Shown: positions 42,055 to 52,318 of the stretch, piece by piece | How positions within the stretch are numbered: position 1 is the first letter of the stretch | How the letters are laid out: each line of letters begins with the position of its first letter | Position numbers and translations under genes: made by a program | Notes under the pieces: generated by a model | Database searches by the model: none | The model's input: the letters and a program-made list of their open reading frames with translations, nothing else | What the model was told of the DNA's origin: nothing | Source of the DNA: a virus | UHGV virus genome: UHGV-0038496 | Length of the DNA: 64,000 bases | Direction: 5' to 3' (one strand)

Positions 42055-42364
42055 GATGTTTTCCCCCTTAAGCTACCACGATTGCCACAGCTGCCACTAC
42101 ACCTATTACAACTGCCGCCATAGTCAGAGCTAACACACTGCCTACGAATAAAGTTGCCATAATCTTTTCCTCCCCTTCGTGTTACTGTTTACTGCCTTCA
42201 CCTATAGAATACAGTATGGGGGGCAGTAGTCAACACCTTTTGTAAAAAAAAATCCTGGTAGTCGTTGGCATCGGCGGCACTGACTAACCAGGATGGGCAA
42301 ACATCAAAAATAAGGCATCAAACGGGGCGTAGGACGCAAAAAACTTAGTTCCCTTTGTACTTCT

Positions 42365-42718
42365 TCATAGCTGGATAATATAGCCCTTAGAATCGTATAG
42401 ACGGCGTTCCAGCGCTTCATAATAAAAACCCGCAAGGCTAAAAAGGCAGTGATTAGCACGTAAAACTTCCGCTGCATAAGCCGGATCCGCTTCCATTCGT
42501 TTGATTAGAATATTCTGCCACGCCAGGCGACGGATCTCACCGTTAACGTTACGTTTGATCAAAGTGTCTACTTTGTAGAGTCGTGCGGCTTGAGCGGCTT
42601 TTTTCGCTTTTACCCGCAAGGCCTCTTTTTCGTAGGCTATCACCGCGCCGATGGCCTCATCCTGGGCTTTTGCTGCCAATAGGTCGAAAGTTAACAGGCT
42701 AACGCTTGCACGTTTCAT
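42365..42718 (-). CDS. hypothetical protein
   Basis: ORF in minus-strand array. Confidence 0.4.
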   Translation of the reverse strand: MKRASVSLLTFDLLAAKAQDEAIGAVIAYEKEALRVKAKKAAQAARLYKVDTLIKRNVNGEIRRLAWQNILIKRMEADPAYAAEVLRANHCLFSLAGFYYEALERRLYDSKGYIIQL

Positions 42719-42744
42719 AGTAATTTACCTCTTATGCTGTTGCA

Positions 42745-42972
42745 TTATTTATTATCATTCCGGTAAATAACTTTTCCGTTCCGGTCCATCAGCACGCCGA
42801 TTAATCCGTGGCGTTCGTGGTAGTATTTTTCCATTTTGAAGATTAAAAAATCTTCTGCTTTATCATATTCATAGCAAGAAACGATATAATCAGGGCGAAA
42901 ATATATAAAATGGTTAGCATGTGGATTTTTTTCTTTTGCCTGATTAAATGCTTTGCTGTCAACGATAATCAT
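42745..42972 (-). CDS. hypothetical protein
   Basis: ATG at 42972 preceded by GGGGAG. Confidence 0.4.
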   Translation of the reverse strand: MIIVDSKAFNQAKEKNPHANHFIYFRPDYIVSCYEYDKAEDFLIFKMEKYYHERHGLIGVLMDRNGKVIYRNDNK

Positions 42973-42989
42973 GATCTTTACTCCCCTTG

Positions 42990-43238
42990 TCAACCGTGCA
43001 ATGCCTGCACATTGAAAGCGCCATAGATAGGATCAGCCGGAACATCAATTTTGTATTTTTCGCATTTAAAGACGATATAAACATAGTCTTTTTTGTCCTG
43101 CCTGATCGCACGTTCGACCATTTTCCCATTGTGCACAAATACAACGTAACCGCTTGCGATGTACTGGTTAATGGCGACAGGTATCATAGTACGGCGAACG
43201 TTAGTACCCTTGTCGATTAAAGCGCTTAGATTTTTCAT
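42990..43238 (-). CDS. hypothetical protein
   Basis: ORF in minus-strand array. Confidence 0.4.
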   Translation of the reverse strand: MKNLSALIDKGTNVRRTMIPVAINQYIASGYVVFVHNGKMVERAIRQDKKDYVYIVFKCEKYKIDVPADPIYGAFNVQALHG

Positions 43239-43279
43239 TTTGCTTACTCCTCTTTTCTTGTTGGACTTAAGGCCCTGCC

Positions 43280-43459
43280 TTACAGGGCCATTTTTAACAA
43301 TTCATGCATGTCGAAATTTTCAAGGTTTTTAGCCAGGTAGACGGCTTTTTCTGCCACCTCCTCATCGATATCGTCATCGGGGAGAAGGTCCAGAGCATTT
43401 TCACGTTCACGCATTGCAACATTTACCAGGTTGTTAACTTTTTTGATATTCCGTTTCAT
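43280..43459 (-). CDS. small acidic protein (59 aa)
   Basis: Below ORF-track cutoff; ATG preceded by AGAGGAG. Confidence 0.4.
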   Translation of the reverse strand: MKRNIKKVNNLVNVAMRERENALDLLPDDDIDEEVAEKAVYLAKNLENFDMHELLKMAL

Positions 43460-43536
43460 GATTTAGTACTCCTCTTATTTGGTGTGGTACTTCTTTTATT
43501 TACATCTTACAACAACCTGGCAGCTTGTCAACCTTT

Positions 43537-44067
43537 TTATTTCATCATTTTGCGAATTTTGTTAGCCATTGCCGGGTTATCTAGTACAAGGTTGTAGAGG
43601 TCTTTAAAATTCTCGGCGGCATCCTCATAACCATTCAGGCCATAGCCTTTTACCATTTTGTTAAAACCTGCTTTATCTTCCTCTATAACTTCCTCTTTTT
43701 CTTTGAAAATTAATTCGCCGTTATCATCAACCAGGTTGGCCCCATTGTCAAAAACCAGATTCCCTTTTTCCCCTTTATAAACATGGTCACGGATCACGAC
43801 CTCTTTTAAAGCCTCCTGTATAACATATTTTGCATCATTTGCACAATTGCGATCCGCCTTTTTCAACCAGGCCCCTTTTTCCTTGATATCCGCATCAGGA
43901 TTAAAGGCGACCATAGGGGCAACAACTTCCCCGGCGCAATTCATTATAATTTCTTTCACATAGACGGGATTGATATGCTCAGGGGCTTCAACTTTAAAGC
44001 CGCCAGCGTTTACATTCGCACCGATAACCATCGCCAGGGCAGCTAAAACATATTTGAATGCTTTCAT
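43537..44067 (-). CDS. secreted/periplasmic protein (signal peptide)
   Basis: ATG at 44067 with AAGAGGAAAA RBS; MKAFKYVLAALAMVIGANVNA signal-peptide-like. Confidence 0.5.
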   Translation of the reverse strand: MKAFKYVLAALAMVIGANVNAGGFKVEAPEHINPVYVKEIIMNCAGEVVAPMVAFNPDADIKEKGAWLKKADRNCANDAKYVIQEALKEVVIRDHVYKGEKGNLVFDNGANLVDDNGELIFKEKEEVIEEDKAGFNKMVKGYGLNGYEDAAENFKDLYNLVLDNPAMANKIRKMMK

Positions 44068-44147
44068 GATTTTTTCCTCTTTCAAGTGGTTAATACTGCT
44101 TTCAGTTTTATAATATACTATCCTGGCAAGGTGTCAACACTTTTATC

Positions 44148-44333
44148 TTATTTTGCTTCTCTTTCTCTTCGTGCCAGGTACTTACACCGGGCCAGGGCTA
44201 GATCGAAATCTGCGTAAGCGCTATCACAAGTAGAATGTGTTAAACCTTTTACCATCACCTGGTAAACTTCCGGCCTAACCTCAAGGATCCAGTAGTTGCC
44301 CTCTTCGTAAAGTATTTGAGATTCTTTAATCAT
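44148..44333 (-). CDS. hypothetical protein
   Basis: Small ORF in minus-strand array. Confidence 0.35.
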   Translation of the reverse strand: MIKESQILYEEGNYWILEVRPEVYQVMVKGLTHSTCDSAYADFDLALARCKYLARREREAK

Positions 44334-44381
44334 GGTGTTTACTCCTTTTAGTGCTTTATGTTGTGTTTTTATGTTCTGTCG

Positions 44382-44657
44382 TTATTTATGAGCGCCTTTT
44401 ACGCCAACCAGGCGATTATATTCTAAGTGCTCAACAATTAACCAATCTTTGAAATCGCCGTCACGGTTTAACAGCCGCCAATCTTTGTTGATATTGTATT
44501 TATAGCCATAGCCGCAATTTAACTTAGTAGGATGCACCGCTTTCGCGTTGTGTGCTTCCAGGATGCTCAGGGCTTTTTTAAGAACGTTTGCGGGAGTATT
44601 TTTTTGCATTTTAACGTTCTTGATACCTTTAACGTCGATCATTTTCATGATGGTCAC
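44382..44657 (-). CDS. hypothetical protein
   Basis: ORF in minus-strand array. Confidence 0.4.
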   Translation of the reverse strand: MTIMKMIDVKGIKNVKMQKNTPANVLKKALSILEAHNAKAVHPTKLNCGYGYKYNINKDWRLLNRDGDFKDWLIVEHLEYNRLVGVKGAHK

Positions 44658-44744
44658 CTTTTTGTGTTTTGTTAGTCTTAACTACTTCTTTTAATTTAAT
44701 TGTATATCTTTTAGATTCTGTGTCAACTACTTTTTTCTAACTTT

Positions 44745-44954
44745 TTACCCCTCCCTGGCAAGGCGTTCAAGCCGGATAACCATTCTTGCGACCGCCCTCC
44801 AATCCGCATCATTAAATTCATCCATAGGGGCCGGATTGTTCATTACTTCCAGGTTGTTGATATTGACGTGATACGGTACAGCTTTTACAGGTGCGGCCTT
44901 TGCTGCCGCTTTTCTTGCTTTCGCCGCTTTGCGTTTATCTCTACCCATGCCCAT
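44745..44954 (-). CDS. hypothetical basic protein
   Basis: Lys/Ala-rich N-terminus. Confidence 0.4.
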   Translation of the reverse strand: MGMGRDKRKAAKARKAAAKAAPVKAVPYHVNINNLEVMNNPAPMDEFNDADWRAVARMVIRLERLAREG

Positions 44955-45047
44955 GATTTGTTACTCCTCTGGTTGTTGGCCTTACTTCTTTCTTCATCTT
45001 TATAGTAAGAAAAAGGCCTGCACATTGCAAGCCTTTATGAAGATTTT

Positions 45048-45329
45048 TTAAAACAACGCATGTAGCGGGTAACGGTTACCAGGGTAATAAATCACCTTGA
45101 TCATTTCGTCCGGCAGGAAGAAGTTAAACCATTCGCCAGTGTTATCGTCTGGATCTTCGTCCGCATACATGAAGAAGTAGTCTACAGTTTCCTCGCCAGG
45201 GGCCTGGCCTTCGTTGTATTCTACCCTAGTTAATTTCAACGGGCGATCATTACGGATTATAACCATACCAGCCTGTAAATAACGGGCTTCAAAATTGATA
45301 ACCGCGCCAGGTAATAAGTTAGGGAACAT
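45048..45329 (-). CDS. hypothetical protein
   Basis: ATG at 45329 with AGAGGAG RBS; a C10 homopolymer lies in the 5' leader. Confidence 0.45.
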   Translation of the reverse strand: MFPNLLPGAVINFEARYLQAGMVIIRNDRPLKLTRVEYNEGQAPGEETVDYFFMYADEDPDDNTGEWFNFFLPDEMIKVIYYPGNRYPLHALF

Positions 45330-45636
45330 AATTTTAACTCCTCTGTTGTTGGTGGGGGGGGGGTATTCCCCTTTCAAGAATAAGTATACACACAACAGAC
45401 CACATTGCAAGAAAAATTTTATCAGATGATAACTATTCTCATTTTGCAGGAGGCAACACTTTTGAGTCTGGATCGCTTCGAGGTTGGCAATAGTGGAAGC
45501 GTTGAAATCGATTTTTAGGCACCTGGCAGGGCCTGTAACGGCCTGGAATGGTGGGGGCTTTACACTTGCATATCTTGCTGGTAAATCTTGATGGCGGGGC
45601 TTACAGGAAGGATTTAAAACACAGGAGGCAGGGCCA

Positions 45637-45661
45637 TAAAAAAGGCCGCTGATTTGCGGCC
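45637..45661 (-). terminator. rho-independent terminator (minus strand)
   Basis: GGCCGC-tgattt-GCGGCC hairpin with T-run on minus strand; near-identical to the 40093 terminator. Confidence 0.55.
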
Positions 45662-45682
45662 CTTCATAATAGTTTCACATTG

Positions 45683-45799
45683 TTATCTTTTCGCGTCGTG
45701 TTTATCGCCAGCTATACCGAAGACCTTCCAGCCTACACCGATCCCGATGATACAGATAAACCAGACAACCAGGGCACCAAGCCCGATCAAGATGTGCAT
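45683..45799 (-). CDS. small membrane peptide (38 aa)
   Basis: Below ORF-track cutoff; AGAGGG RBS; hydrophobic. Confidence 0.35.
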   Translation of the reverse strand: MHILIGLGALVVWFICIIGIGVGWKVFGIAGDKHDAKR

Positions 45800-45804
45800 T
45801 GTCG

Positions 45805-46155
45805 TTACCCTCTAAAATAATGTTTTACGATTGCAATAATTACAGGCGCAACATAATAGACCACTGCACCCAAGACGGCCCACGGGGCCAGTTTTTTGGC
45901 GACTGGATAAATGTATTCACCGCACACATAGCACACGATCCAGGCCAACATAATTTTAATCGGTGCATTGTAAAAGATGTTATGCACCCAATCAATATAA
46001 GCGTATGCCATACCGAAAAGCACCGCACCGATAGCGGCCCCACGGCATTTAATTTTACGGGCCGCTTTTTCGGCAGCTTCTCGATCAATGGCGTTCATCT
46101 CTGGGGCCATCTCGTTGACGTCCGGCATACGGTTTAACAGGTCGATGATTCTCAT
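45805..46155 (-). CDS. multi-pass membrane protein
   Basis: Three hydrophobic helices. Confidence 0.45.
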   Translation of the reverse strand: MRIIDLLNRMPDVNEMAPEMNAIDREAAEKAARKIKCRGAAIGAVLFGMAYAYIDWVHNIFYNAPIKIMLAWIVCYVCGEYIYPVAKKLAPWAVLGAVVYYVAPVIIAIVKHYFRG

Positions 46156-46369
46156 TGTTTTTCTTCCTCATGGTTGTTTCCTTCTGCGTCAATTATAGAT
46201 CGCTATAAAGTAAATGCCAACCCCCATAAGTGTTTCAATCGCCAGGATCTCACACCACGTTATCAAGTGGCTGATTGTATCATTGCAAGGTCGAGGCTTG
46301 TCTTTCATTTTCTTATTCCCCTTGTTGGTTGATGATAGGGCCGGACTTCCGGCCCTGGTTGAAATTGTG

Positions 46370-46600
46370 TTACATGATAGTAAGTTTACGGCCTTTGATC
46401 ATGATGTAACCGTGTCCAGCATTGCCCCAGATATCAACGTAGACGCGGCGCATCCGGCCCTCGAAGTTGATCATCCAGTTAGTCGGTAATTTTTTACCGT
46501 AACCGCTTGCAGGCATTTTGGCGTTGACTGGTTTTTCAATCATGACTACATCAAAAAAGTTTTTATAGTCAAATGTTGCAACAGCTGGCATAAGGTCCAT
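46370..46600 (-). CDS. hypothetical protein
   Basis: ORF in minus-strand array. Confidence 0.4.
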   Translation of the reverse strand: MDLMPAVATFDYKNFFDVVMIEKPVNAKMPASGYGKKLPTNWMINFEGRMRRVYVDIWGNAGHGYIMIKGRKLTIM

Positions 46601-46681
46601 GATGTTTCCCCTTCTTACTGTGTGGTTGAGTTCTCTTTATTGATGATCCACTTTCTCATCGTGGACCATCTAAAAGCTAAC

Positions 46682-46876
46682 TCATGCGGCTATTGCAATG
46701 ATTCGTTCTGCTGCCTCAACCGCTTCATAGTCCAGATTATTGTGGTGCGCTACATCCAGGAGGAAAGTTAGTGCATCTTTATAATCTTCGTAGTCGCAAC
46801 GATAAGCCTCTACACCTTCAACAAGAATCGCAATTTTACCAGCTTTTTTCAGGTTTACGATGTTAATGTGTTTCAT
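46682..46876 (-). CDS. hypothetical protein
   Basis: Small ORF in minus-strand array. Confidence 0.4.
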   Translation of the reverse strand: MKHINIVNLKKAGKIAILVEGVEAYRCDYEDYKDALTFLLDVAHHNNLDYEAVEAAERIIAIAA

Positions 46877-46951
46877 GATTTGTCACTCCTTTTAAATTGT
46901 TTACTGCTTTCGATTATCAGTATACTTGTTTTTTCTGATTTGTCAACCTTT

Positions 46952-47179
46952 CTAGACTTCTTCCGGTGCCGCTTTAAAGAATCCTCTAATGATCCGGCCT
47001 CCCCTTACACTTCTTGAAAAAATTGCGTCAACCTCGCGCCTGAATGCCTCTACCCAGATATCGCCCTTACTATCGCTATTCCTAACAATCCAGGCCATAC
47101 GGTAGACCTTGTTATCGAAATTAATCACACCTTTAGATGGTTTAACTCGATTCATGGGGAACTTGATAACGTTGCTCAT
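46952..47179 (-). CDS. hypothetical protein
   Basis: ORF in minus-strand array. Confidence 0.4.
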   Translation of the reverse strand: MSNVIKFPMNRVKPSKGVINFDNKVYRMAWIVRNSDSKGDIWVEAFRREVDAIFSRSVRGGRIIRGFFKAAPEEV

Positions 47180-47843
47180 TTTATTTTCCTCGCTTAGTTG
47201 TTTATTTTTGTAGTGGGAGGTTTATAACCTCCCTCCTCTGTGTTTATAATGCTGCCCGTATATGATGTACCAGATGTTTAAAAGCTCGCGCCAGGTAAAT
47301 TTATCATCTTCGGGCTTTTCTTTATCGTTTTTCATACCCAACCTCATTTTTTGTTATTCAGACCTTTTAACATTTCTTTAATGAAATCTTCCACCCTTTC
47401 ATATTCGTTTGCTTTGTAGTAGTCTTTCATTTTATTTTCCTCGTTTTCTTTCAGCTTCCCCCGGTTTATCCGGTCCTTGTTGCCTCCCTGCATCCTTTCC
47501 TTTCAACTTTATTTTACTGCTTTGTGTTACCTTGTCAACCTTTTTTACTTCTTTCTAGTTTTAGGGCTTTTCGGCTCCCTCGGTCCTTCGGTTAGCTATG
47601 CTTCAAGGCTTTTCCTTTACCCTTCTTTTCCCGCTCCCGGAACTTTCCTTTCTGTTCCCTTTCTTCTCCTTTCGACTATAGAATACCAAACCGGGGGGCC
47701 GTGTCAATACCTTTTTCACAACTTTCTTAAAAATTTTTACTTCCGCATGTTGCTTAAGATAAAACCAACAACCAGGCAGCAGATAACCACAAAGGCCAGG
47801 CCCACAGCGATAAACGGATTCATCAGCATTTCAAGTAACATGA

Positions 47844-48053
47844 TCAGGCCTCCAATACCATAATTTCAAAGCGTGCGACGATAGGGCTAACGTCTACGAG
47901 GCACATCGGATCGACTACGCGATGGATAACGACTAGATGATCATCATGCTTATCGATGTAATAATCCTCGTTATCAATTATTTCGCTTAGGTCATAATAA
48001 CGGCCTTTCTCATAGCGGCCCCGTGCATCATTGGCATAATCACAGTAGACCAT
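47844..48053 (-). CDS. hypothetical acidic protein
   Basis: ATG at 48053 with AGGAGGA RBS. Confidence 0.4.
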   Translation of the reverse strand: MVYCDYANDARGRYEKGRYYDLSEIIDNEDYYIDKHDDHLVVIHRVVDPMCLVDVSPIVARFEIMVLEA

Positions 48054-48209
48054 TTTGCTTTCCTCCTGCTGTGTTTCTTCTTTCAATTAAAATAATACGC
48101 AGATCCTACAAGAAGTAAATAAGGTTTTACCTATTGATTTTTGCGTTAGATGTGTTTTACAGGTTGGGGAGTGGCAAACGAAGAAAGGCCCCACCAGGGG
48201 GCCTATCGG

Positions 48210-48431
48210 TTAAATTTCGTCTGCTTTCATGCGTTCACGCCGTGCTGCATATTTCATTTGCTGGCGTTCACGTTCAAGTAACAGGCGGCGTAAATTACGG
48301 TCGTAATAGTTGCGCCACAGTTTACCGAAGCGGCGCGGCTTGTTCAATTTGTTGTTACGCTGGCGGCGTTCCGGCAGTTCATCAGATAAATGATTGCGTT
48401 TAGTGATTTTTTCAAAGTTTACCATGTTCAT
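48210..48431 (-). CDS. Arg-rich basic protein (possible nucleic-acid binding)
   Basis: About 25% Arg/Lys; AGGAG RBS. Confidence 0.4.
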   Translation of the reverse strand: MNMVNFEKITKRNHLSDELPERRQRNNKLNKPRRFGKLWRNYYDRNLRRLLLERERQQMKYAARRERMKADEI

Positions 48432-48445
48432 AATCGGCGCTCCTG

Positions 48446-48784
48446 TTACTCGTTATCGTCGTTTTCTTCTGCTGCAATATTTGCCGCTACTGCTTTAATA
48501 AATTTTTTCGCGTCACCGTTGCGGCCCCACAGGTCAACGATTAAAAATCCTGCCTGCTTTATCTTATTCGTGTACTCCAGCAAGTTGTAAGCCGGGATCG
48601 GCGACGGCGTTACATATTGTTTCCCGTGTCGGTCCTGGTACTTGATAACATAATCAGCACCCGGATCAATATCCCACGGATTCACCCGAAAAGCCTGGCA
48701 CCTGGCGTAATAACTTTGATTTCTTACTTTGTTCCAGACTACCCCGATTGCAATAAATGTAAGTATGCACGTCACTAGATCCAT
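48446..48784 (-). CDS. membrane-anchored protein
   Basis: ATG at 48784 with AAGAGGAAAA RBS; N-terminal helix. Confidence 0.4.
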   Translation of the reverse strand: MDLVTCILTFIAIGVVWNKVRNQSYYARCQAFRVNPWDIDPGADYVIKYQDRHGKQYVTPSPIPAYNLLEYTNKIKQAGFLIVDLWGRNGDAKKFIKAVAANIAAEENDDNE

Positions 48785-48871
48785 AGATTTTTCCTCTTTG
48801 CTATTGTGTGGGCATAATGTCACCTCCTCCTGGTTGGATAGGGGGCCGGACTCCCGGCCCCGCCTGGTATG

Positions 48872-49120
48872 TTATCCTAACATTTTAAAATAGTTGACGT
48901 TCAAAATTTTTTCAATATCGTCAACCGCTTTGATATGCATGAAAGCAATCAATTTACCATCGATGCGGATAACCGGGCGGCCCAGGTGATAACCTTTAAT
49001 CATACGCGCTTTTACTTTTCCACCTGCTCCCCCTTCACGCCACCAAATGGCTTTTCCGTTGCTGTAATACCAATCAGCTTTTACCAGGTCCACCGCTGCA
49101 AAGTTAATTAATTTAGCCAT
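48872..49120 (-). CDS. hypothetical protein
   Basis: ORF in minus-strand array. Confidence 0.4.
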   Translation of the reverse strand: MAKLINFAAVDLVKADWYYSNGKAIWWREGGAGGKVKARMIKGYHLGRPVIRIDGKLIAFMHIKAVDDIEKILNVNYFKMLG

Positions 49121-49197
49121 TGCGTAACTCCTCTCTTATTGTGGTTACACTAAATTATCTTTATGGATGGCCCCGCCAGGGCCATCTAAAAGGCAAC

Positions 49198-49536
49198 TTA
49201 GTTACGTAACGCTTCCTCTACTTCCTGCAATTCTGCTTCAAGGTCGGCCAATTCGTCGCACAAATCACAATAGTTTGCGTCATCGCTTACGTCTACGCTG
49301 TCTACATAGTCATTCAATCCGCAACGATAAGCAATCGGATCCAATTCGCGTAAGATTCTAGACGGTAAAAATTCGCAACCGCCTACCACTACCGCACCGC
49401 CTTCGTCTAGTACTTCATTGTAGTCATCTTCATAATCAGCCGGATCGATTTCAAAATTCTCGATTTTATTGTTCAGTTGTTCGATAGCTGCAACCAGAGC
49501 GGCACGACGTGCAATCATTTCGACGTTAGCGTTCAT
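49198..49536 (-). CDS. hypothetical acidic protein
   Basis: Acidic, Cys-containing. Confidence 0.4.
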   Translation of the reverse strand: MNANVEMIARRAALVAAIEQLNNKIENFEIDPADYEDDYNEVLDEGGAVVVGGCEFLPSRILRELDPIAYRCGLNDYVDSVDVSDDANYCDLCDELADLEAELQEVEEALRN

Positions 49537-49634
49537 AATGTTTTCTCCTCTGTTGTTACTTATTACTGTGGTTAGTTTACTTTATTGATGGCCCCGTGTC
49601 AATACTTTTTGAGGCCATCTAAAAGCAAGCTATT

Positions 49635-49994
49635 TTATTTGTATGCTAGTTCCACATAAAACCGCGCCATCAGTTCAAACCATTCTTCAATGTAACGTTC
49701 TTTAGTATCTTCTTTAGTTTTTTCATCAATGATCCCGAACTCACGCAGGCGGTTTAAAATGTCATCGTTGCAAAAATCGATATCAACACCGCTAGGAAGA
49801 CCAGCCAGCCAGTCAGCCATAGCCTTCACACGATTGCCATTGAAGCGACGGATATAATAGCCGTCGAAATGCTCAGCTTCAAAGCGTGCTTTCAGTTCCT
49901 CAACGTCGTTGTCGTGTTCCATGTCATCAAAGTTCAAGCTATCAACTACATACTCACGAATTGCGTTAGCCATAGCCTTATTGATGCGTTTCAT
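49635..49994 (-). CDS. hypothetical protein
   Basis: ORF in minus-strand array. Confidence 0.4.
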   Translation of the reverse strand: MKRINKAMANAIREYVVDSLNFDDMEHDNDVEELKARFEAEHFDGYYIRRFNGNRVKAMADWLAGLPSGVDIDFCNDDILNRLREFGIIDEKTKEDTKERYIEEWFELMARFYVELAYK

Positions 49995-50261
49995 AATATT
50001 TTCCTCTTTGTGATTTACTAATTACTTCTTTCAGTTTTAAGTTTACTTATTTTTGCTACCGTGTCAACTAATTTTTTGAATTTATTTTACATCATTACAC
50101 GAAAGACCAACATAACCAGGTAGACCAGTACCATAATCATAACATCGCGGCGGATCTGATAGCGAGAATAATTTTTCATGATTGTTTCCCCTTCGTTGTG
50201 TGGATTTTTAGGTTACTTTATAGATGGCCCGGTGTCAATATCCAGGCCATCGAAAAACAAC

Positions 50262-50672
50262 CTATAAGCTCATATAGTCACGATGTGCAATCATCCATGC
50301 AGCGTCTTTGTTTTCACAATAGCCGACGTGGCGAGACTCCCCATCATAACGATAGATAACCTGGTAAACTGCTTCCCCTCTAAGGTCCAGGACGTGGCGC
50401 ACTTCGTAACGTTTGCAACGTTTAACTTGTGCGATACGTGCCCCGAAAATTAGTTTTACCAGTTCTTTCCAATGGCGACGGGCATCAGTTAAAGACACCA
50501 CACTAAACCATGCTTGCCGCTCGCCATCAGCATTAAAAGCGCGAACATGGTAGCAACCGTGGGCCTTAAACAGATCCACCATTTCACGATCCCGCCCCTC
50601 TACCATTTGAACATATCCGCAAGCTAAAGCGAACGCAGTTAAACCATTTGCATTACGGAAAGTAGTTTTCAT
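50262..50672 (-). CDS. hypothetical protein
   Basis: ORF in minus-strand array. Confidence 0.4.
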   Translation of the reverse strand: MKTTFRNANGLTAFALACGYVQMVEGRDREMVDLFKAHGCYHVRAFNADGERQAWFSVVSLTDARRHWKELVKLIFGARIAQVKRCKRYEVRHVLDLRGEAVYQVIYRYDGESRHVGYCENKDAAWMIAHRDYMSL

Positions 50673-50721
50673 GATCCTTTCTCCTGTGTTTTATTAATCT
50701 CGTTTACTGCTTTCATTGTTA

Positions 50722-50749
50722 AGTATACTTGTTTTTTATCGCCTGTCAA
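50722..50749 (-). promoter_or_regulatory. sigma70-like promoter on minus strand (TTGACA, 16 bp spacer, TATACT)
   Basis: rc TTGACA at 50744-50749 and rc TATACT at 50722-50727; drives gene starting at 50672. Confidence 0.5.
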
Positions 50750-50936
50750 CTCTATTTTTCATCTTTTTTAAAGAAATCGATCAGGCCTTTGATAACTGCC
50801 GCCAGGTGCAAGCCCAGCAAAAAGAAGGCATAGCCTACAATGATTGCCGCGATAATGTTCATAATGTTGCCTCCTGTTGTGTGAATAGTAACTTTATTCA
50901 TGGGGCCGTTGCTACAGCCCCAGGGTAAAGCGGCTA

Positions 50937-51182
50937 TTAGTGCGGCATTCCTACCATAGCGGCGCGGATGTTAGTTTTATTGTAAGGCACTCCATCAGGC
51001 GTATGAGTGATCCCCTCTTCTTTCAAGCGGTAAACCATTAAATCAGCTGCCGCGTCTTTATTGCCACACTCATTAATCAGGCCCATCGCTAAAAACCATA
51101 AACCTTCGTCATTGTTGATCCAAAGTGCGACGTTCCATTGATTGTAATTTTTCCAACCGTTATAACCTTTATTGCCTTTCAT
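50937..51182 (-). CDS. hypothetical protein
   Basis: ORF in minus-strand array. Confidence 0.4.
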   Translation of the reverse strand: MKGNKGYNGWKNYNQWNVALWINNDEGLWFLAMGLINECGNKDAAADLMVYRLKEEGITHTPDGVPYNKTNIRAAMVGMPH

Positions 51183-51262
51183 AATTTTATCCTCTTTAGT
51201 TTTTGCCTCTGGGGAAATTTCTTTCCCTTTCGGTTTATATACTACATCTTTATTCTACCGTG

Positions 51263-51496
51263 TCAACATTTTTTAAAGAATTTTTCTACCGTGATATCTT
51301 TCCCAGCAGGTTTAGCCACTTTCAGAATTTTATCATGCACCGGGCGCCCGAAAGAATAAGCGCCATACACAGTAAGCCAATAATCCCCGTTAGGCTGTAC
51401 TATTACCGCTGCATATGGTACGCCTTTCTCGTTATCGTTGACAAAATAGATCACATTGCCATTAATAGCCTCAGCGCGTTTAATTTGTTCCTTCAT
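51263..51496 (-). CDS. hypothetical protein
   Basis: ORF in minus-strand array. Confidence 0.4.
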   Translation of the reverse strand: MKEQIKRAEAINGNVIYFVNDNEKGVPYAAVIVQPNGDYWLTVYGAYSFGRPVHDKILKVAKPAGKDITVEKFFKKC

Positions 51497-51582
51497 GATT
51501 GTACCTCTCTTTTTGACTGTTGTTTGCCTTTCACTTATAGAATAACAGAACGTTCGGGCGTGTCAACTATTTTTTCTCCAGG

Positions 51583-51768
51583 TCATTGATCGCGGTCGCC
51601 AGTATTGTAAACCTCACCGCCGATCTTGTGTTCAACGTAACGATATAACATGCAATACAACCATTTTAAAACTTTTGCTATAATAGCCACCGCCATAATA
51701 ATAGCCTCTTTAAACCAGTATATTACTATCAAGACGGCGGCAATGTTGACTAAAGTATCATTGCTCAT
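51583..51768 (-). CDS. small membrane protein
   Basis: Two hydrophobic helices. Confidence 0.4.
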   Translation of the reverse strand: MSNDTLVNIAAVLIVIYWFKEAIIMAVAIIAKVLKWLYCMLYRYVEHKIGGEVYNTGDRDQ

Positions 51769-51838
51769 AACCGGATCCCCTCTTCGTTGTTTAAACTGCC
51801 TTTATTGATGGCCCCGCCAGGGCCATCTAAAAGGCAGC

Positions 51839-52240
51839 TTAAGCGTGTGCCTCAATCACTTTAGCTTTTTCATAACCGAAGTAGTGAGCAAGCTGAATTA
51901 AGAATTTTTCAGGATAAACATAATCACCAGCTTTTACACCCATTGCCTCGATTGCTTCCCGTAATGCGGCCTCTTCTTTATCGTAACCATAGCCACCAGC
52001 TTTCCCGCCAACAGTAGCATAAAATTCGTGCCCTGCTTCATGTACCCAAACTACACAGTAAACAGTGTTACCGCGCGGCGCCTGGTAGAAACGAATCGTT
52101 GCTACTTCTTCCAGGTCCATTTTGTGGTCCAGTGCCACCAGGTCAAAAGACTTATAAAAACCATTTTCGCGGCGGCAGTTACGAAGATCGCGAACTTCTT
52201 CCAGACCAGAGAAATCGAAATTTGTGTTAAAAGCGTTCAT
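51839..52240 (-). CDS. hypothetical protein with HExxH motif
   Basis: VWVHEAGHEFYA contains HEAGH. Confidence 0.4.
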   Translation of the reverse strand: MNAFNTNFDFSGLEEVRDLRNCRRENGFYKSFDLVALDHKMDLEEVATIRFYQAPRGNTVYCVVWVHEAGHEFYATVGGKAGGYGYDKEEAALREAIEAMGVKAGDYVYPEKFLIQLAHYFGYEKAKVIEAHA

Positions 52241-52289
52241 GATGTTACTCCTTATATTTTGTTAACCTTATGTACTGCTTTCACTATCT

Positions 52290-52318
52290 ATAATACTTTA
52301 TTTCTTTCTGGTGTCAAC
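52290..52318 (-). promoter_or_regulatory. sigma70-like promoter on minus strand (TTGACA, 17 bp spacer, TATTAT)
   Basis: rc TTGACA at 52313-52318 and rc TATTAT at 52290-52295; drives gene starting at 52240. Confidence 0.55.

Follow-up and report, generated by a model that had tools for sequence, protein, structure and literature searches.

A conserved purine-rich leader RNA in a large coliphage genome and an Escherichia coli prophage cassette, and its possible relation to host CsrA

The virus genome UHGV-0038496 was analysed over a stretch of 64,000 nucleotides (nt), called here the window, and a non-coding element on its minus strand is described. The upstream part of this element is a core of 115 nt (47673-47559, minus strand) with 78% purine, in which four short hairpins are joined by purine-only linkers. 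Comparison with its relatives indicates that the core is very probably a leader RNA that is structured and under selection. The motif is new, with no counterpart in Rfam 15 or among the GenBank phages. From the contexts in which it is found, the leader is a portable 5' cassette common to virulent-type coliphages and an E. coli prophage. The explanation that we favour is that this structured leader could serve as a platform for the binding of host CsrA, and the explanation as a whole is given a probability of about one in three.

Relatives were found by anchoring on the flanking proteins, by scanning collections for conserved DNA patterns and through the family of small open reading frames (ORFs) that accompanies the element. 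The core is conserved in about 17 distinct sequences, the relatives scoring 73-133 bits. With the covariance model R1 the window's own core scores 113.7 bits, and it is the sole copy in the window. Since the model-fitted alignment misplaced one relative (locus L025; relatives are cited by such numbers) into its promoter and left another (L024) unregistered, pair counts were taken from MAFFT alignments, with the 17 distinct cores scored on hairpins A, A2, B and C. Standard pairs occupy 97.6% of the cells as compared to 86.6% in column shuffles, and 9 of the 20 pairs have changed on both sides, in 28 cells as compared to 7.0 in the shuffles. None of 500 shuffles reached the observed pairing values. 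When the 3' partners were slid by 1-3 columns, pairing fell to 20-57% and the pairs changed on both sides to 0-1. The same covariation result was obtained with a set of 14 sequences, and RNAalifold recovered A2, B and C unaided. It should be noted here that the structure was derived from the very sequences that were scored. An earlier note on this DNA had proposed conservation and covariation analysis as a check, and its outcome was favourable, with 17 distinct relatives and compensatory changes in four hairpins.

All the features described below lie on the minus strand unless stated otherwise. Hairpin A (47639-47658), GGAAC[AGAAAGGAAA]GUUCC, has GGA in its loop. A G-C pair of its stem is replaced by A-U in four relatives (L001, L006, L007 and L027), and in the lineage of a diverged second copy (L024, L035) the stem differs, reading GGUUA[AGGAAC]UA(A/G)CC around the aligned GGA; copies of the prophage type are without hairpin A. 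Hairpin A2 (47605-47623), AGGGU[AAAGGAAAAG]CCUU, also has GGA in the loop and pairs in 100% of cells, two of its five pairs having changed on both sides (U-A to G-C; U.G, C-G and G-C). Hairpin B (47594-47602), AGC[AUA]GCU, is a stem of 3 base pairs with a 3-nt loop. Its outer pair is G-C in 11 sequences, A-U in 4 and U-A in 2, and again 100% of cells pair. The single-stranded linker that follows, AACCGAAGGAnCGAG (AACCGAAGGA; 47579-47593), contains GGA and is conserved more strongly than any other part of the element, being invariant in the 17 sequences apart from n and one change in E. coli UMNK88, AAGGA to AUGGA, by which GGA is kept. Hairpin C (47563-47579), GGG-A-GC[CGAAAA]GC-CCU, contains a bulged A and is followed by UAAAA with no U run; its cells pair in 100% of cases, and four of seven pairs have changed on both sides (G-C to A-U; C-G to G-C; G-C, G.U and U.G). 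Hairpin D (47460-47474), ACCGG[AUAAA]CCGGG, belongs to the proximal leader and precedes the Shine-Dalgarno sequence by about 20 nt. By-eye comparison found its position occupied by varied sequence (CCUGG/CCGGG in L017, GGAC[GGAU]GUCC in L034, CACC[AUCCA]GGUG in L035), and in L024 the hairpin is deleted.

A different view of this conservation would be that the core is the functionless residue of a decaying gene, or has arisen as a product of promoter-cassette recombination, and is conserved only through close kinship. Most of the relatives are indeed 85-95% identical, most prophage cassettes are without the core, and the prophage-type copies keep one frame open through it, such that gene callers extend an ORF into the core (P0031). 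Nevertheless such a remnant is improbable. The core is recognisable at 72-92 bits where promoters, flanks and 5' parts differ, with at least three different promoters upstream, and the 15-nt linker stays invariant while the adjacent stems change by paired substitutions. Stop codons also interrupt the frame in the window, L002 and L010, and the cores of relatives differ by indels of 1, 2 and 4 nt. A protein-coding reading of the core was rejected on the same indels, which are not in triplets, and on the stop codons present in all three minus-strand frames of the window's core; the earlier note had likewise seen no ORF between the promoters.

The extreme composition of the stretch is evident from a comparison with the rest of the window, in which the minus-strand purine fraction has a mean of 0.49 (sd 0.07) in windows of 150 nt. 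The highest value, 0.787, is that of 47423-47572, and the third highest, 0.707, is that of 47575-47724. The minus strand between the promoters reads GAAAGGAGAAGAAAGGGAACAGAAAGGAAAG... and the C content of the leader is only about 13%. A promoter scan placed P1 at TTGACA (47707-47702), followed by a 16-nt spacer and a TG-extended TATTCT (47685-47680), a match of 10/12, with its predicted transcript start at a G near 47673, just before GAAAGG. P2 consists of TTGACA (47538-47533), a 16-nt spacer and TAAAAT (47516-47511), a match of 11/12; it is located between hairpin C of the core and hairpin D, and its predicted start is near 47504. Minus-strand promoters near 47690-47715 and near 47530, with GA-rich sequence between them, were what the earlier note had described, and all three are present. 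The note had put the GA-rich part at about 150 nt, and the purine-rich non-coding stretch is longer: measured from the predicted start of P1 up to the ATG at 47430, with the P2 leader included, it covers about 245 nt. The P2 leader is a purine-rich sequence of about 75 nt ahead of a 28-aa (amino acid) ORF (47430-47344; MKDYYKANEYERVEDFIKEMLKGLNNKK), whose Shine-Dalgarno sequence is GAGGA (47442-47438). An ATG further upstream, at 47493, from which the ORF would be longer, has been lost in L001 and L002.

The hexamers of P1 and most of its spacer are unchanged across the clade of the window, and other promoters occupy its position in L017, L024 and L016/L025. P2 is restricted to the window's clade, with an altered form in L010; it is absent and the leader is continuous in L016, L017, L024, L025, L030 and L035-37. 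L017, for instance, has a different promoter spacer, no P2 and one continuous leader of about 200 nt. P2 is thus an insertion particular to the window's clade, because the cores of the relatives run on without a promoter, and on this comparison the two-promoter layout is not a defining feature of the element. Both P1 and P2 belong to a family of early promoters, at least 12 of which are found on the minus strand at about 42-52 kb (window 42233-52317). Their form is TTGACA-N16-TAnnnT-N5-(T/C)GAAAG(C/A/G)AGTAA, and each stands 35-50 nt ahead of a small gene. P1 is unusual within this family in having about 245 nt without a gene downstream. The P2 spacer contains the family's start motif, AAAGCAGTAAAAT. 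It was also observed that the conserved first transcribed bases of the family, GAAAGCAGUAAAC, recur right after hairpin C (47555-47540) and in the P2 spacer; this recurrence may be a signal at the RNA level (e.g. a processing site) or the footprint of promoter-cassette recombination.

A terminator scan found no site on the minus strand between 48186 and 45036. The element therefore has a promoter of its own and lacks the terminator of its own that an intrinsically terminated, trans-acting small RNA (sRNA) would carry. In L016, L017, L024, L025, L035-37 and UMNK88 the core is followed, with no promoter between, by the proximal purine-rich stretch, usually with hairpin D, and then by the ATG of the small ORF. 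Because no terminator is present and the RNA would run on into the ORF, a 5' leader module of an mRNA is favoured over a discrete sRNA. The earlier note had left the choice between a small non-coding RNA and a leader that binds ribosomes or a protein; the conserved non-coding leader stands, and the discrete small RNA does not, owing to the missing terminator and the run-on into the ORF.

The small ORF belongs to a family of 28-29 aa with the consensus ..NE(H/Y)ERYADFIEEMLKALKNKN, which comprises 41 protein clusters, some of them tandemly duplicated (P0008, P0009, L037). Its members include the ORF of the window, those of L016, L024 and L025, and those of L030-L041. Members of this one family stand behind the leader in the early region of the coliphages of about 140 kb, at the diverged second copy in one of these genomes and in the prophage cassette between tail genes. 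Searches of Pfam, PHROGs and PDB with the small ORF and its neighbours gave no informative match. Typically, it is the first gene of E. coli prophage morons, and it is known that morons are separately transcribed cassettes in the late operons of prophages, e.g. HK97 gene 15 and lambda bor and lom. In UMNK88 (L030, NC_017641 1655735-1656497) the cassette consists of a promoter, a long GA-rich leader, a 29-aa ORF, a 35-aa ORF, a 100-aa membrane ORF and a terminator; RefSeq annotates neither the 29-aa nor the 35-aa ORF. In this strain and in similar contigs the cassette is flanked by the tape-measure gene on one side and the DUF6246/tail-tube genes on the other and is encoded on the opposite strand, and cassettes of this type encode small membrane or secreted proteins. 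By its layout the UMNK88 unit would be a moron, a separately transcribed cassette inserted in a prophage operon. The likeness to morons is that in UMNK88-type copies the cassette headed by the leader is placed among tail genes and has a promoter and a terminator of its own. The cassette of the window differs, its place being the early region of a large virulent-type phage and not a prophage late operon. We know of no conserved structured leader RNA in morons.

A match was found in 35 E. coli genomes, and the long leader is present only in UMNK88. Five other copies that were read (L031-34 from E. coli genomes and L038 from a metagenome contig) have a GA-rich leader of about 75 nt with hairpin D and no core. 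In one relative (L010, 3126-3260) the stretch from P2 to the next promoter, with the 28-, 41- and 75-aa genes, is missing, and the core stands directly before the promoter of a 64-aa gene. Recombination between promoter cassettes is the apparent cause of the deletion, and the core of L010 still pairs despite the loss of the ORF. The long and short leaders together with this core without an ORF indicate that the core is a separable unit.

Such separability would also fit a processed, trans-acting RNA of about 115-120 nt, cut e.g. in the A/U-rich UAAAACUAG after hairpin C and acting by pairing through the linker AACCGAAGGAnCGAG or by means of Hfq (through A-R-N repeats), ProQ or a phage protein. 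The presence of the core is independent of that of the proximal leader, in the window's clade a promoter stands between core and ORF, and L010 has kept the core although its ORF is gone. The invariant single-stranded 15-mer between hairpins resembles the seed of an sRNA, and the start motif GAAAG(C/A)AGUAA right after hairpin C fits a processing site that would leave the standard 5' end on the mRNA. Against this, no terminator is found, A-R-N runs are trivial in any purine-rich RNA, and L010 is a single observation that recombination between promoter cassettes explains; processing to a trans-acting RNA is thus considered quite unlikely.

It is known that a transcript of 78% purine with clusters of G favours RNA:DNA hybrids, and here such a transcript follows a strong promoter. 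The element could in that case act at the level of DNA or transcription, as an R-loop priming a promoter-dependent origin or as a put-like antitermination RNA, and the tandem promoters in the window's clade do recall promoter-dependent phage origins. The same element is found, however, in a prophage tail-gene cassette, where an origin would be senseless and where the only terminator is the cassette's own end, and between 48186 and 45036 of the window an antiterminator would have no terminator to overcome. For these reasons an origin or a put-like antiterminator is disfavoured. Moreover, the compensatory changes indicate a folded single strand, the GC skew turns at about 35 kb and not at the element, and P2 is absent in most lineages, such that this alternative is very improbable. 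As the cassette context and the absence of terminators speak against an origin or antiterminator, and the covariation counters the view that the core is junk, a function at the RNA level remains.

Proteins of the CsrA/RsmA family recognise A(N)GGA, preferably in hairpin loops. The leader contains 15 GGA in 243 nt, i.e. one per 16.2 nt, of which eight lie in the 115 nt of the core; with the same script E. coli CsrB was found to contain 22 in 369 nt, one per 16.8 nt. GGA is kept in loop A in 12 of the 12 sequences having that hairpin (14 were aligned), in loop A2 in 14/14 and in the linker in 14/14. In L024 and L035 the stems of A and A2 have been replaced and the GGA of the loop is retained, the hairpins reading GGUUA[AGGAAC]UAACC and GUGC[AAGGAAA]GCAC, and in L010 too loop GGA is kept where stems have been replaced. 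One GGA overlaps the Shine-Dalgarno sequence GAGGA and the 14 others lie upstream, an arrangement that is a weak criterion in a purine-rich sequence. Weak sites of the AAGGA type exceed those in shuffles, strong Shine-Dalgarno-like sites do not, and GAG and AGA are depleted; the excess of weak sites and this depletion point to a motif of the A(N)GGA type rather than GGAGG. From this pattern it is possible, as a tentative proposal, that the RNA is a binding platform for host CsrA.

CsrB and CsrC of E. coli and RsmX, RsmY and RsmZ of Pseudomonas are sRNAs that sequester CsrA/RsmA, and the Rsm sRNAs are roughly 115 nt in size, like the core. Apart from the density of GGA, the element shares with these RNAs short weak hairpins, GGA in apical loops and in single-stranded linkers, and purine richness (0.64 in CsrB). 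It differs from them in having no sequence or model similarity and no Rho-independent terminator, and in being phage-borne and fused to an mRNA. A second comparison is offered by the mRNA leaders of glgC and pgaA, in which several GGA sites for CsrA bring about repression at the Shine-Dalgarno sequence; the 5' untranslated region of Salmonella fimAICDHF reportedly acts as a CsrA sponge. Like these leaders, the element is long and untranslated and has many GGA, one over the Shine-Dalgarno sequence (47442-47438) and others in the loops of upstream hairpins, with a spacing compatible with bridging by a CsrA dimer. It differs from them in having far more sites (12-15), a more extreme purine bias and the nature of a mobile cassette common to unrelated phages. 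The element thus looks like a Csr/Rsm decoy or a multi-site leader controlled by CsrA. It is not a member of those families, because it matches none of their models, lacks a terminator and has its GGA sites in a different context.

A generic leader for high expression would account for part of these features. Such a leader would be purine-rich, resistant to Rho (C-poor and G-rich) and open at its Shine-Dalgarno sequence, would offer standby sites to ribosomes and would slow RNase by its hairpins. The element almost always lies ahead of a strong Shine-Dalgarno sequence and a small ORF, the short versions of the leader are also GA-rich, and the low C content and weak folding energy fit an open leader of this kind. 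Weak sites complementary to the anti-Shine-Dalgarno sequence (<= -4 kcal/mol) also exceed those in shuffles in most lineages (p 0.0-0.1). Left unexplained by it are the invariant 15-nt linker and the compensatory changes in four hairpins. Strong Shine-Dalgarno-like sites are not enriched (p 0.4-0.9), the core of L010 still pairs though its ORF is deleted, and the first 15 nt or so of the transcript are single-stranded, with no protective 5'-terminal stem. We regard a generic leader as possible but rather unlikely.

Several observations weigh against the binding of CsrA to a structured leader. The cells of the covariation analysis are not independent events, because the relatives are few and many of them are closely related. 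The hairpins are thermodynamically weak, the z-score of the minimum free energy as compared to shuffles being +0.3 (core) and +0.1 (whole leader); since the folding energy is no better than that of shuffled sequence, it is the covariation that carries the structure. As most prophage cassette copies have no core, the core is dispensable for expression of the ORF. The enrichment of GGA in the leader is weak (z = 1.6, p ~0.08, as compared to z = 3.4, p = 0.0005 for CsrB), because purine richness alone predicts about 11 GGAs. In other lineages the shuffle p is 0.0025-0.36 with mononucleotide shuffling (0.36 in L024) and 0.04-0.47 with dinucleotide shuffling. AAGGAA dominates here and CAGGAUG in CsrB, the loops of hairpins B, C and D have no consistent GGA, and no sequence or model likeness to the Csr/Rsm models of Rfam was found. 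Beside these points, no CsrA homologue was found in the window or in the related loci collected up to that search, and in the literature on CsrA sponges of phages or prophages and on GGA-rich leaders nothing relevant was found.

If the leader does bind CsrA, the course of events would be as follows. The sigma-70 RNA polymerase of the host would start at P1, near 47673, and the first 115 nt would fold into hairpins A, A2, B and C with their purine-only linkers. With no terminator in the way, transcription would go on through P2, the second purine-rich stretch and hairpin D into the 28-aa ORF. CsrA could then be bound at the GGAs of loops A and A2, of the linker and of the Shine-Dalgarno overlap, and in this manner could govern how well the cassette is translated or how stable it is. 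In addition, CsrA could be titrated off its host targets by an early transcript that is abundant. That the element is the first virus-borne RNA of the Csr type, a mobile GGA-rich leader which captures host CsrA and is expressed from an early promoter or a prophage cassette, is doubtful on the evidence of the sequences.

The element was also compared with known RNAs and known phages. A search of Rfam 15 with the whole window at gathering thresholds gave no match, and at E <= 10 the region 47380-47760 gave only a chance match to RT-6 on the other strand and no known riboswitch or cis-regulatory family. A scan for tRNA and tmRNA found none. A search for tandem repeats (TRF) found only two marginal arrays of 8 and 10 nt, with scores of 30-35, and no head-to-tail repeat RNA. 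Among GenBank phages megablast and blastn gave only chance matches and no copy of the element, and scanning one genome per species with the core pattern gave 0 matches; of the ten matches to an 18-nt pattern in viral contigs, six proved to be chance matches. A syntenic copy is present in about ten uncultured coliphage contigs of about 140 kb, at 85-95% identity. The diverged second copy (L024) lies in contig OLOT01000016.1 beside the syntenic copy (L027), and L035 is a further variant. Other copies are found in phage contigs of about 53 kb (L016, L025), in contigs L036 and L037 and in the chromosome of E. coli UMNK88 (L030).

The closest GenBank phage is Escherichia phage MiataMamis, which infects E. 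coli and has 60% amino acid identity in the 69-aa neighbour of the element. The host is E. coli, since the module occurs in E. coli chromosomes and the closest GenBank phage infects this species. In the first 70 kb of MiataMamis that were searched (about half of its 136.6 kb), including the syntenic position, neither the element nor the small ORF was found. The window itself comes from a large phage with genes for DNA ligase, a DNA polymerase exonuclease subunit, NrdD, PhoH and HNH endonucleases, and is only remotely similar to the Vequintavirinae.

Upstream of the element, the 69-aa gene (48050-47844) is followed by a gene for a 34-aa hydrophobic peptide (47841-47737; MLLEMLMNPFIAVGLAFVVICCLVVGFILSNMRK), which is below the 40-aa cut-off of the ORF listing and the stop codon of which is the start of the non-coding stretch. 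It was observed that the ATG of the 34-aa gene overlaps the stop codon of the 69-aa gene (TGATCATG). The 34-aa gene is kept in all relatives and in MiataMamis, the relatives showing substitutions and a 3-nt indel with the frame intact. On the plus strand, the ORF 47477-47863, which the earlier note had considered almost certainly spurious, was rejected as a gene, as it lies antisense to both promoters and to this conserved gene. Relatives do not keep this ORF; in them the region is broken or shifted, with 70-107 stop-free codons in differing frames as compared to 132 in the window. This ORF is an artefact, because the pyrimidine-rich strand has few stop codons. In one relative only (L012, 2379-3014) a 211-aa gene with T5orf172/DUF723/MUG113 domains, resembling a homing endonuclease, lies just upstream of the 69-aa gene. 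Two other hairpins of the early region were noticed. A strong one, GGGAGGUU[AUAA]ACCUCCC, lies over the stop codon of the 41-aa ORF (47215-47233) and is also seen in relatives, where it is conserved; it lacks a U tail. Another early leader (51201-51266) opens with CGAAAGGGAAAGAAAUUUCCCC and has a GGGAAA/UUUCCC hairpin near its 5' end, like hairpin A.

To our knowledge, conserved structured RNAs have rarely been described in the early regions of phages. As the element travels with a tiny and widespread peptide gene and is common to virulent-type and temperate coliphages, it is a candidate tool by which phages in general could act on post-transcriptional control in the host. If the binding of CsrA proves false, the element would still be a clean new RNA motif with natural long and short variants of the leader, carried by the sequenced strain E. 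coli UMNK88. If it proves true, phages would tap the Csr system by way of an RNA decoy, expression of the attached small-protein cassette would be tied to the Csr state of the host, and the control of carbon metabolism, motility and biofilm formation in the host would be rewired during infection or lysogeny.

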